DNA of 64,000 nucleotides from NCBI RefSeq assembly GCF_057098645.1, contig NZ_JBXSPU010000003.1; one strand, written 5' to 3'. This DNA comes from a plasmid. Made by a program: the position numbers. Shown here piece by piece: positions 38,201 to 44,200 of the stretch. Every line of letters starts with the position of its first letter. Positions within the stretch are counted from its first letter, which is position 1.

Positions 38201-41200
38201 TATGCGTGACAAGCGGTCTTCTTGTAAACTGAAACCAGAAGGAACCTCACCCAGTGCAACCGGAGTCAACAAATCAATGATCCGCTGTTTATGGTCATCC
38301 TGCCGAGGGTCTGAAGGAGTCAACTCTTCTGATTGTGAGCGTGCCAGCATCTCATCATAATTTTGTTTATCAAGAGAAGTTTCTCGTTTTGCCTGCATTG
38401 TCGGGCTCAAAGAAGTTGTTACTGAAATCATGGCCCCTGGTACATCCAGTGGAACCAGTGTCAGGTTATAAGTAGATTCAGGAACTGAATCTTCTGAAAG
38501 CATAATTCCTATAGGCTTATCTGTATTTGTTGAAATAAAAACATCCCCGCCATTAACGAAAATACTGGCTTCATCAGCTGGCGTTGAAGTACTTACAGAT
38601 GCATTTTTAAATGAAGTCGAAATTCTGTTTTGCAGCCCCCGAGAAACCGGGAGTACAATATTGCCACCAGGCGGAACGTTTACTCGTTGTACTTCTTTAT
38701 AGCGATTACGTGCTTCAACATAAAGTTCATCTGCCTTTGAAGGGGACCCGGTACTTTGTGCATTTTGTTGAGGTTCTTTCCCTGCTGGTCTTCCGTAACT
38801 ATCAAAATTTCCTGATTTAACCTGTTGCTGGTAACCAGCTAGAGTAGGGTTATTTGACAACGCCCCGGTTATTTCATTGACTGCGGGAGAAGCACTGCTT
38901 GCAGGTGAAAGACTTGGCAGAGCAGTTGTCGGTTTTGTTGCTTGTACGGTCTCAGTCGTAGTGCCAGTGTCTTTAATTATCGCATTTTTCACACCGTTCT
39001 GAAATTCATCGGCCCCGACAGGCATAACTACCGGATTATTTACTGTCGCCGGTAACTGATAGTCTTCAGCAAATACCACATTCGAAGTTGCCAGCAAAAT
39101 CACTGCTGTAATCGCGGTGCAGTGAAAAACCTTTTTTGAAGTCATAATTAGTTACCTATTGACGGCGGCGGATTATCGAGTGTTGCCAGTTGTTCTTTGC
39201 CGTTGATTGTAATTTTCTTAATATTTGGTGTACCTGAATACTGGTTCACATAGGCTATGCGCGGTCGTCCATTTTTCATTCCCAGGACCCATTCAAACGT
39301 CCATTTGGATGATTCAGTTTTGTCCGGAACATTAATCAAACGAGTTGACTTTGTTCCCCAGACATAGACCATGTCATTTTTGGTGTCGTAATACATATCG
39401 ATCGGCTTAAATGACTGCTCTACACCACGAGCCTGCATTATATTGGTTTGCTGCTGTAGTGATTCCCGGGTCTTTGCCTGTAAATCCGGAGAAAGCGCAT
39501 CCAATATAGTTGTTGTAACAAAACCGATGTTTGTTGGGTTTATGTTTCCAATCAAAGTACTAAAGAATAAGGCCCACTGCGTTTTATATGATTCTGAGGC
39601 TTTATTTCCAACAACTTTGACTTCTTCCGTCATATTTGGCGGTAGCACTATAGTCACAGGATCAGTGAGAAATTGATTTTTTACAACCAGAACCCCAATA
39701 ATGATCATTGCAACTGTATTCACACGTAGGAGTTTTTCGTCGCGTTTAATCAATGCACTATATGTAATTCCAATTTCAGAACCTTCAATTTCTTTACTAA
39801 AGCGTGCTTTTGAATCCAGAAAACTTCCTTTTACTTCTTCACCTCCTTTTTGCGAAGTCTCATCCTTGTTATCAAAATCGCCATTACTGGAATTTTTAAT
39901 GAATGGAATTTTTAACCTGCTGAGAAGTTTCATTCTTAGCTCCATCAAGAATAGAGGTTTCTGATAAATGGATCGGTAAAGTAACGACTACTAAACACCG
40001 ATTTTCCAGGAAAAAAGCCGTACCACCACAGTTTGTGTTTTAGTTTTCCTCTAATCCCTTCCTCTGCTGCTTTCTTATATGCAAACCAGAACACCACCGC
40101 CACAACTACCGAAGTTATAAAGAAATCAAAAATATTACCGCTCGCGATAGTCACGAATGTTATACCCAATTGCTTTGCATCCCAGAATAGAATTAGTAAC
40201 GGCATATTTATTCTGTATGGAAAGCGATATGTATGTGGCGGTATCTCGTACTGGCTTGTCATAAAAACTCCAGAGAGGGGGAATATCCCCCTCATTGTTA
40301 TTGTTCTAACAAATCACAGAGGAATACCAGCATCCAGGAACGAGCTGATAATTTTTTCACCGTTTGCCATAACCAGCATCATTAATGCTGATACCAGCGC
40401 CAAACCAAGGTTAGGTTTTACAACGCCGAAATAAGCCACCGAGAACAACATGCCGCACGCGATGATTTTACCCGGCGCACCAGTCAAGGCTTCGCTCATG
40501 TAGGCCCAGATATCGCCGAAGGCTCCATCATCGGAACCCGCGTACGCAAAACTGCAATTTGCTAAAACCAAGAGAATAAACAAAGGCACTTTTGCATGTT
40601 TGGACTTCAAAAATGCAAAAGCGTTAGTTTTTCCTCTTTCAACGTTAGTATTCAATGTCAGTTCCATAATTACTCCGTGTTGATTTAAATTCACGAAAAC
40701 GCATTGGCATAATACTTTTTATTTTTCTTTCATTTTTCTGTTAACCACCTTTTTTTTGACTTAATTGCGCTTGGTGTTTTTTTAGCCATCGAATGTCAGA
40801 AAAGAATCCCGCATGTAATCGGATTAAAGAAGGTGCGTTTAATTAACATGCCAAATAGGGAAGAGGGGCATCGTCTGCCCCTTTACCATTTTTATGGCAT
40901 TCATCCAGCCAGATATTTAACAAAGGACACGGTAAGGATGACATTCCAAAAGTCACTTTTCCCCCATTGATGCGAGTGCTTTTCACCCACAAGGATTATG
41001 TATCACCCATTCATACAAATGCTTTTCAATGAAAGCCACCTCTGCGGAGCACATTCATACGAATGCTGTTCGATGAAAGCAAAACTGCGGAGCTCATTCA
41101 TTCAAATGCTGATTGGGGAATGCGCGTCTGCGGTGCCCATTCATTCAAATGCTTATCGTAAAAGTCACTTCTTCTGAATCCATTCATGCAAATGCTTTTC

Positions 41201-44200
41201 AAACAAAGACACCTATCAGGGACTCATTCATGCAAATGCTTTCCAACCAAAGGCAACTTACACTTCCCCATTCATTCAAATGCTTTCCGACCAAAGGCAA
41301 CTTGCATTCTCCTATTCGTGCAAATGCTTTTCGAACAAAGGCACCTTACACTGTCCCTTGCGAGCCCTGCTTCCCGACCAAAAGCAACTTTCACCGCAGC
41401 ATTCATACAAATGCTTTTTTCAAAAGGCACTTTTCTGCCGCCATTGAAGCAAATGCTTTTATACAAAAGGCACTTTTCTGCCGCCATTGGAGCAAATGCT
41501 TTTATACAAAAGGCACTTTTTTGCTCTCCATTGAAACAAATGCTTTTCATCTCCTTGATATCCAATTTGAGTAATTTTCATTTATTATCAGAATGTTATG
41601 TTATTTCTCTAGGTCCTTCATTGGCCTGCATATTCATAAAATGCCGTCGACCAGGCTCATATCCCAGTCGTTTGCAGGCGTTAAGGAACTGTAAATACGC
41701 CGAGTGGCACAAGGAGTATAGGGATTTGCGTTTAAAGCCCAATACAACACGATGGAGGGTAGTGTAGTTAAAGGCATATGTATGAATGAGTCTTATTAAA
41801 CTAGCAAAATGAATAGGTTACGTTGTCTCAACTAGCAAGCATGATTTTTTCTGAAAAGCATTCGAACGAATACCAGAAGAACCCGGGTATCAGAAATGAT
41901 AGGAAGTTTGGAAACAGGGAAGGGTGTTCAAATCCGGAGAAACATTAAAAAGCATTTGGATGAATGCCCATACTCCTCATTACATCCAAAGTAACTTTTG
42001 TGCGTACTATACCCGGAGCATCAACTGTGTTTTGCCAGAGCAAGTTTTGGACTTCTTTTAAAAATCTGGAACTGGATATCTCTACCTTTCTTAACCTCTT
42101 GATATTCAAGATATCCTATTGATTTTAACTCCAGCATCGCCTTCCTGATGATCTGGTTTTGAGTTCGTACAGGAGTCGTCAACAGAAGTCGCTCACGCAA
42201 ACGCTTCATGCTTACGAATAGCGTACCGGCAGGCATCGCCTCAAAATATATGTACAGGCTTTGTGCTGCCTCTTTTTTAGCGAGAACCGAAAGCACCTGC
42301 AAACTAAGTAAGGTTTTATGATCATACCGGTAAAGCTCCCACATTGAGGGATCGCCCACCAACTCTACGGTGTCCTTCTTAGGATCAATCACTGCTTTCT
42401 GCACAAGGTGCGTGACAGTAAAACGTTCAGTTTTTGAATCACGGAAAGAAATCACAACGGAAGCTAGGTTTGCTAGCGCCTCCTGAAATCGTGAGCGAGT
42501 TCGCTTGTTTATGTTTGTAGAACTGATACCACACATTTTTGCAAACTCATTGAATGACAATGTGATTTTATCGGAAGCGAAACCATATTTGCTGAACGCC
42601 ATTATGCAACCGAGCCAACACTTAAAATCGGTTGACATCGAAAGCTTAAGACCAGTGATCCGAATGTCATCGTATCCTTCTGAACGGGCCAGCTCCATGC
42701 TCGACAACTCATCAGAAGCGTCAACCTCAAAATTTCTGTATCGCTTCTCTTTAGTTCCCACCGGGGTAAAAACACTTAAGCGCAGTAAAGCAATGGGTTG
42801 GACCGATTTCGAAGAGTTTGGACTCAGTTGATAAGTCTTCCCTGTCTCCGTGTTGGTCACATCAAAAGGATGTGTTACCTCATTGTTATCACTCATTTAA
42901 ATTTACCCACCATGGTTTATCCCTTGATACATTTAGATGTGAATAGATTATTCGTGCAAATGCTTTTCTCGCATTAAACTAAATGCCTTTTCAATTCAAG
43001 TAAATGCTTTTCTTATTCAATCAAATGCTTTTTACATGCACCTGAATGCCTGATCATGCTTATTCCATAATAAAATCAGTTATTTACGGCACCTGTGATC
43101 TTTTTTGTACTCTCTTGATCTCTCTTGATCTAAAGAATTGATCTAACTTGTGGAAAACGTGGATAAATTCCGTCTGTTAACCAACTCTGACCTAAAAAGT
43201 TCAGGTTCGGACTCTAGCCAAGTAGGGAATGCAGCCGGAAGAAGTATCAATCAATCTGAAGCTTTTAAGATATATTAATTTCAAACCATTCAGATTTAAA
43301 AATTTCAAATTAAAATGGCCTAATTCCTTCATAACTAAAATTACAGTCAAGCACCGAATTAATTGTTTTTTGCTTTTGGGTTATTTGAAACTGAGTCAAT
43401 TAATGTATCATGTAATAAAAAGGAGGTTATATGAATCACTGCGACTATCAGATTATTGAGATCAGTCCTAAAGCACTTTTTATCGAATCTGGATTCAATC
43501 CACGTGAAGCGGTAATTGGTGAACTTTGTTATGAACAGGAACCAGTAAAATCGACCATTGTTTCTATTAAACAAGCCTATAAAGAGGGCAGACGAGTCGA
43601 TTTAATTAAGGTTGTTAAGAAAGACTCCAATTACGTTGTAAGGCAGGGGCATTGCCGTTACAGAGCACTATCTCTTGCTCTTGCGGAAGGAGCTGATATT
43701 CAGCTCATTTCAGTAGTTGTTATGAACTATAAGAATAAAAGTGAAGAATACCTGGAGAACCTTGATGGGAATAGGAATAACGGTCTTAATCCCGTAGCCT
43801 TAGCTTATGCACTGGCAGAGGCGCTGAAGCTTGGCTCTACCGTTGAATCCCTTGCTATGCGCTATCAACGGTCTAGCACTGCTATTCGTAACCAGCTTAA
43901 AATCCTTGATATGCCTTTAGAACTACAACGTTTAATCAGTCTAAACCTGATTAAAAAAACACTCGCGATTGAGATCATGTTGAAGTATTCCAATGACCAT
44001 GCAAAAGTCCTTGCACATTTGGAATCGTGTTCTCTTTTAGTACCATCAACTGAACCAGAACCTGTTTTATCTAAGACATCAAGCGTTCAAACATCATCAA
44101 ACGATGAGAAACTAGATAACCCGGAAACACTCCCTGTTCATGTTATTCCTAAGGAAGTTAAAACAAAATCCATCACTCGCAGTTCATTGGGTATTAAACG

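Follow-up and report, generated by a model that had tools for sequence, protein, structure and literature searches.

IncHI1 plasmids are clinically important resistance plasmids, known for multidrug resistance in typhoid and for tet(X4). The primary papers on their RepHI1A replicon are Newnham and Taylor 1994, cited in PMC4853401, and Gabant 1993. The IncHI1 plasmid R27 has three replicons, RepHI1A among them, and its replication can be sustained by either RepHI1 replicon (PMC4853401). That paper also cites literature in which a minimal RepHI1A fragment is reported to replicate autonomously.

Several related replicons have been described. The annotation of the phage P1 plasmid replicon (record AF234172) comprises a DnaA site and five Dam sites, five incC iterons with PrepA inside them, the repA gene and nine incA iterons. 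IncHI2 plasmids carry a RepHI1A(R478)-type replicon, for which PMC4980987 cites Page et al. 2001. RepFIB, the replicon of IncF and Klebsiella FIB plasmids, also employs a Rep_3 initiator.

Here we analysed a plasmid stretch of 64,000 nucleotides (the window), in which the segment 40960-43170 is very probably (about 93%) the basic replicon RepHI1A from an IncHI1 plasmid whose backbone is of the R27/pHCM1 type. Judged from its sequence, it would be a P1-type, iteron-controlled theta replicon. This module is real but ordinary: it was previously characterised in IncHI1 resistance plasmids such as R27, and it opens no new biological question. The chief use of our analysis is in annotation, as it establishes which of the three IncHI1 replicons this is and how exactly it is built. 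In addition, a unit-number polymorphism in the control array is documented.

Identity of the replicon and its initiator

The published RepHI1A primers (PMC5735575) matched the window exactly at 42785-42804 and 42440-42458, with one site each. Because both primers match inside repA and yield the published 365-bp product, the locus is RepHI1A and not RepHI1B. The encoded protein was 100% identical to that of R27 (NC_002305.1, 39480-40355). A comparison with RepHI1A and RepHI1B references, which had been proposed in an earlier sequence-only reading of this DNA, thus resolves to RepHI1A, and the boundaries 40960-43170 given there proved accurate. RepA, the origin, the three inverted iterons and the position beside the Tra2 pilus genes are the same in the window as in R27 and pHCM1. 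In both the window and R27, the neighbours of repA are transfer-pilus genes annotated as TraL, TraE/TraK and the secretin TraK. The exact sequence of 40960-43170 is common to many tet(X4)-type IncHI1 plasmids. The features of the locus are collected in Table 1.

Table 1. Features of the RepHI1A locus and of the second Rep gene in the window (positions in the window)
Feature	Position	Strand	Description
Downstream tandem array, incA-like	40965..41548	+	14 slots (42-44 bp each), 13 of them with a recognisable 20-bp iteron; iteron consensus CATTCATGCAAATGCTTTTC
Inverted iteron, weak	41769..41788	-	CATTCATACATATGCCTTTA
Inverted iteron	41853..41872	-	TATTCGTTCGAATGCTTTTC
Inverted iteron	41947..41966	-	CATTCATCCAAATGCTTTTT; 55 bp beyond the repA stop codon
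repA, RepHI1A initiator	42021..42896	-	291 aa; Rep_3 / P1-RepA / RepFIB type
In-silico RepHI1A-specific PCR amplicon	42440..42804	.	365 bp, equal to the published size
Origin-proximal iterons, incC-like	42949..43055	+	Five slots, spacing 21-23 bp
A+T-rich region, presumed unwinding element	43052..43143	.	32-33% G+C
Two tandem DnaA-like boxes	43149-43157, 43158-43166	-	TTATCCACG, TTTTCCACA in repA sense; 8/9 consensus match each
Second Rep_3 gene of the window	59779-60660		35% identical to RepA; matches Rep3_N

The window contains a second IncHI1 replicon (59257-60900), which is presumably RepHI1B. Its general layout is similar to that of the first one, and the Rep proteins of both match Rep3_N, which might suggest that 40960-43170 is itself RepHI1B or an uncharacterised third IncHI1 replicon. 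We give this reading practically no chance. The RepHI1A-specific primers match only at repA (42021-42896) and give exactly 365 bp, and the iterons of the other, only 35%-identical Rep (ATCCACTATACCGGGTA) are unrelated to those of RepHI1A. Moreover, an 86%-identical gene lies in the equivalent position by the conjugative-transfer genes of an IncHI2 plasmid (MOB-suite type IncHI2A). Both RepFIB, whose initiator is 45% identical to RepA, and the second IncHI1 replicon share the layout of RepHI1A (origin iterons, rep, downstream iterons), but their iteron specificities and incompatibility groups differ from it. Another 291-aa ORF at 1123-1998 was considered as the second Rep and rejected as unrelated; the true second Rep is the one in Table 1.

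RepA was compared with the models of the Rep_3 initiator family (Pfam PF01051 / PF21205). Residues 100-216 matched Rep3_N, the model of the N-terminal WH1 domain, with 37.6 bits (cut-off 22.4, E 3.6e-9). Rep3_C, the model of the C-terminal WH2 domain that would complete a tandem winged-helix fold, scored 20.7 bits, just below its cut-off of 21.1. P1 RepA was 44.2% identical over residues 20-287 (92% of the length, E 5e-66). The Rep_3-type similarity predicted from the sequence was borne out by a Rep3_N score above the gathering threshold. No NCBIfam model matched RepA, and sequence searches of the PDB, with phmmer or with a five-sequence profile, gave nothing meaningful. With the AF2 model of RepA (pLDDT 73.7), the best PDB matches were domains 2-3 of RctB (E 1.7e-7, TM 0.54-0.56, about 296 columns) and the Rep WH1 domain 6h24; the RepE and pi structures were absent from the top structure matches. 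Directly repeated iterons of 17-22 bp beside rep are a trait of the family, and the 20-bp iterons next to repA agree with it.

A strict sigma-70 scan of the minus strand found no promoter for repA. A relaxed scan gave one 8/12 candidate, with a weak -10 element (AATAAT, 42952-42947 on the minus strand) overlapping the repA-proximal iteron; it is no more than a weak candidate for the promoter. Terminator-like matches stayed at chance level. An Rfam scan of 40500-43700 found nothing, so this interval gives no hint of control by an antisense RNA.

Iterons and the array downstream of repA

The 20-bp iteron CATTCATRCAAATGCTTTTC was found 15 times in the 64-kb window when up to three mismatches were allowed, and all of the matches fell within 40965-43012. 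The expected number was 0.02, and none of 100 shuffles reached 15 matches. The repeat noticed in the sequence-only reading is thus strongly non-random and confined to the locus. A PWM scan recovered 13 strong plus-strand iterons in the array, starting at 40965, 41008, 41052, 41095, 41138, 41181, 41225, 41269, 41313, 41400, 41442, 41485 and 41529, in agreement with the estimate of about 13 copies downstream of repA. The remaining slot (41356-41375) is decayed. The array iterons share their orientation with the origin iterons.

Three inverted iterons, which the earlier reading had missed, are located after the repA stop codon and before the array. The weak one is kept in pLec-476cz despite a diverged flanking spacer.

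The array differs in length between plasmids. In R27 and pHCM1 it is longer by 88 bp, i.e. two units (16 slots versus 14 in the window), with the indel at 41178/41179, and three substitutions separate the two versions as well. When the segment 40800-41700 was compared with the plasmid collection, about 178 records matched at 99% or more and about 41 only at 80-90%; the one record examined among the latter, a pHCM1 record, has the R27-length array. The array allele of the window is commoner in the plasmid collection than the R27-length one.

A CDS is annotated in the array in essentially all of about 220 near-identical plasmid records, and ORFs of 153 and 193 aa are indeed open across it. The array might therefore encode a real repeat protein, the PGAP 'hypothetical protein' (for example WP_154166887.1, equivalent to 41149-41574 of the window), which we consider extremely unlikely. 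The period of 43/44 bp is not a multiple of 3, and overlapping ORFs are open simultaneously in different plus-strand frames. Stop triplets on the plus strand are scarce in the array (9 in 601 nt versus about 29.5 expected, the lowest 0.16% of windows). The 88-bp indel falls within the annotated ORF and would shift its frame. The annotation itself is inconsistent: in R27 the ORF runs on the opposite strand, in pHCM1 and pLec-476cz other ORFs are annotated, and the IncHI2 record lacks one altogether. No Pfam or NCBIfam model matched the array ORFs. The scarcity of stops, the length difference and the discordant annotations support the earlier judgement that the ORFs in 41113-41767 are repeat artefacts, and the 'hypothetical proteins' placed inside the array in about 220 public records almost certainly do not correspond to genes.

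We also considered whether the array is mainly a platform for a factor other than RepA, for example a centromere or silencing site for a ParB/Noc-like protein, or a binding site for a nucleoid protein. The iteron spacers carry a semi-conserved motif, CAAAGGCACYTT, in 10 of 13 units of the window and 9 of 16 units of pLec-476cz (about 0.5 and 0.3 in shuffled spacers), and a gene for a ParB/Noc-like protein (43431-44507) lies across the origin from repA. However, within each unit conservation is highest in the 20-bp iteron that is also found at the origin. The spacer motif points back to RepA, because its reverse complement, AAATGCCTTT, is a variant of the iteron core. Its conservation may also merely reflect recent duplication of units. 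In the homologous replicons of P1 and IncHI2, the equivalent place likewise contains downstream RepA iterons. A platform for another factor is thus very unlikely, and we regard the array as an incA-like set of putative RepA sites, as the sequence-only reading had suggested. The matching order in the annotated P1 record agrees with this assignment, and by homology the array would take part in copy-number control. PMC4853401, a paper on the incC of R27, was set aside for this comparison; it deals with a RepFIA-like replicon, which is located in R27 at about 156.6 kb, and not with the array of the window.

Origin region and comparison with phage P1

In the sense of repA, the two tandem DnaA-like boxes come first and are followed by four GATC motifs and an A+T-rich stretch. 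Next come five iteron slots with a spacing of about 22 bp and then repA itself, beyond which lie the three inverted iterons and, last, the array of 14 slots. Three origin slots are strong in the PWM scan (42949, 42993 and 43014), one is weak (42972) and one is degenerate (about 43036), which fits the four to five upstream copies counted before. GATC sites are located at 43097, 43117, 43127 and 43140, with another at 43052; this cluster and the one at the second replicon's origin are the two densest of the window. The four outer sites share the core TGATCT, which in repA sense reads AGATCA. The four GATC sites of the earlier reading are therefore present, but only two of them sit in its TCTTGATC repeats. 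Its DnaA-like box is also present, but one of two tandem boxes had been missed; these are the only tandem pair in the 64-kb window. The anatomy and the homology with P1 agree in suggesting a classical iteron-controlled origin, as had been proposed.

Lineages whose Rep is 97%, 86% and 61% identical retain the DnaA boxes, the 22-bp phasing of the iterons and the four GATC motifs, the last of which are invariant. The sequence of the iteron, by contrast, is altered in the 61% lineage. The IncHI2 replicon, with an 86%-identical Rep at the same position beside the conjugative-transfer genes, agrees with the window in its iteron core, its GATC motifs and its DnaA box. It lacks the long 44-bp downstream array, however, and instead contains about nine weaker scattered iterons of mixed orientation in about 500 bp.

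P1 resembles RepHI1A in its tandem DnaA boxes, which in both replicons are outermost, in its GATC cluster and in its five iterons at 21-22 bp adjoining repA. The downstream iterons of both are in two orientations, which switch after the first three copies. The polarity is reversed: in RepHI1A three repA-proximal inverted copies are followed by the long direct array, whereas in P1 three direct copies are followed by six inverted ones. The nine incA iterons of P1 are spaced by 30-41 bp; in RepHI1A there are three inverted iterons, a spacer of about 220 bp and 13-14 direct iterons at a regular 44 bp. In length and, by a wide margin, in regularity the array exceeds incA. The iteron sequences of the two replicons are unrelated. 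P1 has five GATC heptamers (AGATCC), whereas RepHI1A has four AGATCA motifs plus one further site, and the region beyond the downstream iterons contains par in P1 but transfer genes in the window.

Proposed control of replication

Each functional step of the replicon is modelled on P1 oriR/incC/incA, with secondary citations in support. RepA monomers would bind the five iteron slots beside the start of repA, about two helical turns apart, and DnaA would bind the pair of tandem boxes at the opposite end. The intervening A+T-rich stretch, with its GATC sites, may be the opening region, probably under the control of Dam methylation and hemimethylation. The repA promoter would lie in or beside the origin iterons, and RepA is therefore proposed to repress repA. 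The iterons downstream of repA (3 + 13/14) would play no role in starting replication; once bound by RepA, they would be paired with the origin ('handcuffing'), and they may also titrate RepA. These interactions would keep the copy number low and confer incompatibility.

In the array unit, an imperfect palindrome is made up of the iteron's 3' half (TGCTTTTC), a gap of 4-5 bp and the semi-conserved spacer motif AAAGGCA. The expansion of the array to 13-17 units is specific to IncHI1, and it is polymorphic in whole units (-88 bp, +99 bp). The 44-bp unit could conceivably be a composite site, with RepA dimers on the palindrome and monomers on the full iteron, and with the unit number tuning the copy number. 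We hold this to be unlikely, and the idea may already be known in the literature. If it is true, composite units would take up both forms of RepA, and the expansion and polymorphism of the array would tune the copy number.

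Identity of the replicon

IncHI1 plasmids have RepHI1A, RepHI1B and a third, RepFIA-like replicon (PMC4853401). To assign the iteron replicon at 40960-43170, RepHI1A-specific primers from PMC5735575 were mapped on the window. Each had an exact and single match, 42785-42804 (minus strand) and 42440-42458 (plus strand), and the in-silico product was 365 bp, equal to the size in PMC5735575. The replicon is therefore, by sequence, RepHI1A, the first of the two references (RepHI1A/RepHI1B) with which a comparison had been suggested. It is a well-known replicon, already known and experimentally defined. 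Its initiator RepA is 100% identical to an R27 protein (NC_002305.1, 39480-40355). The 2.35-kb replicon stretch is at least 99% identical in 212 plasmid records. These plasmids, 165-350 kb in size, are conjugative (MOBH/MPF_F), and their hosts are Escherichia, Salmonella, Klebsiella, Citrobacter and Enterobacter. In the IncHI1 plasmid R27 and in pYPE10-190k-tetX4 (pYPE10, MOB-suite type IncHI1A), the replicon adjoins annotated transfer-pilus genes (TraL, TraE/TraK, secretin TraK), and in pYPE10 trhB lies slightly past them.

The Pfam Rep3_N match showed the expected similarity of RepA to Rep_3-type initiators, and Rep3_C scored slightly below the cut-off. Searching the PDB by sequence with RepA gave no match. 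The best PDB matches of an AF2 model built from a five-sequence alignment (pLDDT 73.7) were domains 2-3 of RctB and a plasmid Rep WH1 domain. RctB is the chromosome-2 initiator of Vibrio cholerae, and its domains 2-3 are the part described as like plasmid iteron initiators. These model matches are consistent with a tandem winged-helix initiator.

Iterons, GATC sites and DnaA boxes

The 20-mer CATTCATRCAAATGCTTTTC, allowing up to 3 mismatches, matched 15 times in the whole 64-kb window, every time within 40965-43012. Only 0.02 matches were expected and none of 100 shuffles reached 15, which confirmed that the iterons of the sequence-only reading are real. A position-weight scan built from iteron copies gave three groups (see the table). 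The downstream and origin-side groups agreed with the roughly 13 and 4-5 copies counted before, and the three inverted iterons were new to that reading.

The origin GATC cluster (4 sites in 50 bp) is among the two densest in the window, the other being the second replicon's origin. Four GATC sites had been placed in repeats; the clustered sites are present, but only two of the four fall within TCTTGATC, and their common core is TGATCT. Likewise, the single DnaA-like box proposed earlier turned out to be two in tandem. Single 8/9 boxes are frequent (19 in the window), and a tandem pair occurs only here. The GATC-bearing stretch between the origin iterons and the boxes has 32-33% G+C. Apart from these minor corrections (GATC context, second DnaA box, inverted iterons), the interpretation as an iteron-controlled origin with an incA-like array was correct.

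Features of the RepHI1A replicon, the second replicon and neighbouring genes
Feature	Position	Strand	Details
Tandem array	40965-41548	+	13 strong iterons, 42-44-bp lattice, 14 slots (one unit each); position-weight scan
Decayed array slot	41356		CCTTGCGAGCCCTGCTTCCC; position-weight scan
Inverted iterons (3)	41769 (weak), 41853, 41947	-	Between array and repA stop codon
repA ORF	42896..42021	-	291 aa; Pfam Rep3_N above gathering score
Origin-side iterons	42949, 42972 (weak), 42993, 43014, degenerate slot ~43036		21-23-bp spacing
GATC sites	43052, 43097, 43117, 43127, 43140		Four within 50 bp
Tandem DnaA-like boxes (2)	43166-43149		TTATCCACG, TTTTCCACA in repA sense; each 8/9 match
358-aa ORF	43431-44507	+	Divergent from repA across origin; "hypothetical" in all records seen
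Dam-like D12-class N6-adenine DNA methyltransferase	50653-51477	-	Plasmid-borne; Pfam 183 bits
Second replicon, downstream iterons	59257-59737		~9 copies
Second Rep_3 gene	60660..59779	-	293 aa; 35% identical to RepHI1A Rep
Second replicon, iterons (5)	60698-60799		ATCCACTATACCGGGTA (opposite-strand reading); 21-bp spacing
Second replicon, GATC cluster	60839-60881		

Comparison with P1 and proposed mechanism

RepA of the phage P1 plasmid replicon and RepFIB proteins share 44% (E 5e-66) and about 45% identity with RepHI1A RepA, respectively. The P1 record AF234172 shows a DnaA-binding site (two tandem boxes when the sequence is read), five Dam sites, incC (five 19-bp iterons at 21-22-bp spacing with PrepA inside), repA and incA, and the parts of RepHI1A follow the same order. 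When the sequence was read, the first three of the nine incA iterons were direct relative to incC and the remaining six inverted. In contrast, the three repA-proximal downstream iterons of RepHI1A are inverted, and its distal set is direct and expanded to a regular 44-bp tandem array.

The origin was aligned with those of three other lineages, in which Rep is 97% (pLec-476cz), 86% (an IncHI2 plasmid) and 61% (a Lelliottia plasmid) identical. All four origins retained the 22-bp phasing of the iterons and the four AGATCA motifs, and the DnaA-box region was mostly conserved. The Lelliottia iteron is changed to GCGGTTACTTTCAT with its phasing retained, the pattern expected of initiator-site co-evolution. 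Between the window and pLec-476cz, the 470 bp that separate repA from the array have diverged with many indels, and all three inverted iterons are retained. Downstream iterons of the IncHI2 and Lelliottia relatives are only a handful and of mixed orientation, so the long tandem array is an IncHI1 feature.

Homology with P1 is the basis of every step in the most likely working model. RepA monomers would fill the five origin iterons, on one helix face about two turns apart, and DnaA would bind the tandem boxes. The A+T-rich, GATC-bearing DNA between them would then open for helicase loading, with initiation gated by Dam methylation and hemimethylation of the GATC motifs. RepA on the repA-proximal iterons would repress the repA promoter, for which promoter scans gave a weak candidate only. 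RepA-bound downstream iterons would pair with the origin ("handcuffing"), perhaps titrating some RepA as well, thus limiting copy number and causing incompatibility. At 43-44 bp, a repeat spans about four turns of the helix, which would place all array sites on the same face.

Array alleles, array ORFs and neighbouring genes

At least three array length alleles exist among otherwise near-identical replicons. About 178 records have the 14-slot array of the window. R27 and pHCM1, another IncHI1 plasmid, have 16 slots, 88 bp (two units) longer, as probably do about 41 records matching at 80-90%, one of which was checked. pGD27-31 carries a 99-bp duplication of the terminal unit, and the pLec-476cz array comprises about 17 slots. 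Within the units (window 40965-41548; pLec-476cz 4392-5102), the 24-bp spacers contain a semi-conserved motif, CAAAGGCACYTT. AAAGGCA (up to 1 mismatch) occurs in 10 of 13 window units and 9 of 16 pLec-476cz units, compared with about 0.5 and 0.3 in shuffles. Reverse-complemented, the motif reads as the iteron-core variant AAATGCCTTT, and it forms an imperfect palindrome with the 3' half of the iteron. It could serve as a half-site for a dimer, or be only a trace of the duplicated units' shared ancestry. The alleles and motif may be new, or merely unreported in the accessible literature. As AACAAAGGCACTTT, the motif also occurs once at 40579-40592, within a pilin-like gene (40314-40694), and an inverted repeat, CTTTTGCAT...ATGCAAAAG, comes after it (40579-40625); this may be chance.

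The ORFs inside the array are artefacts, as the sequence-only reading held. The array period is no multiple of three, and several overlapping ORFs are simultaneously open in different plus-strand frames. Plus-strand stop triplets number 9 in 601 nt versus about 29.5 expected (lowest 0.16% of all windows), with none in 41176-41444. R27/pHCM1 differ from the window by three substitutions and one 88-bp indel at 41178/41179, within a pYPE10 PGAP CDS (window 41149-41574). Annotation is inconsistent: the R27 ORF lies on the other strand, different ORFs are called in pHCM1, pLec-476cz and pGD27-31, and an IncHI2 record has none in the corresponding place. Neither array ORF matched Pfam, and the annotated CDS matched nothing in NCBIfam. 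PGAP "hypothetical protein" CDSs here (window 41149-41574 and equivalents) are systematic, in about 220 public records (e.g. WP_154166887.1, WP_000835368.1, WP_153253765.1), with strand and coordinates varying by record.

The second Rep_3 replicon (59257-60900), presumably RepHI1B, is alike in layout but has unrelated iterons. The 358-aa ORF gave sub-threshold ParB/Noc-like matches (HTH_ParB, 20.1 bits; TIGR00180, 33.9 bits), with no ParA adjacent. Directly past its end (44567-44660), three overlapping 50-bp windows hold 3 GATC each. The Dam-like gene lies between both GATC-rich origins, about 7.5 kb from that of RepHI1A, and R27 has a Dam-family enzyme annotated at the corresponding place. 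The predicted enzyme could free origin methylation from the host. Between it and the RepHI1A neighbourhood, an accessory segment (45818-48200), missing from the corresponding R27 region, carries a truncated ArsP-like permease ORF (45818-46477) and the lincosamide nucleotidyltransferase gene lnu(G) (47397-48200).
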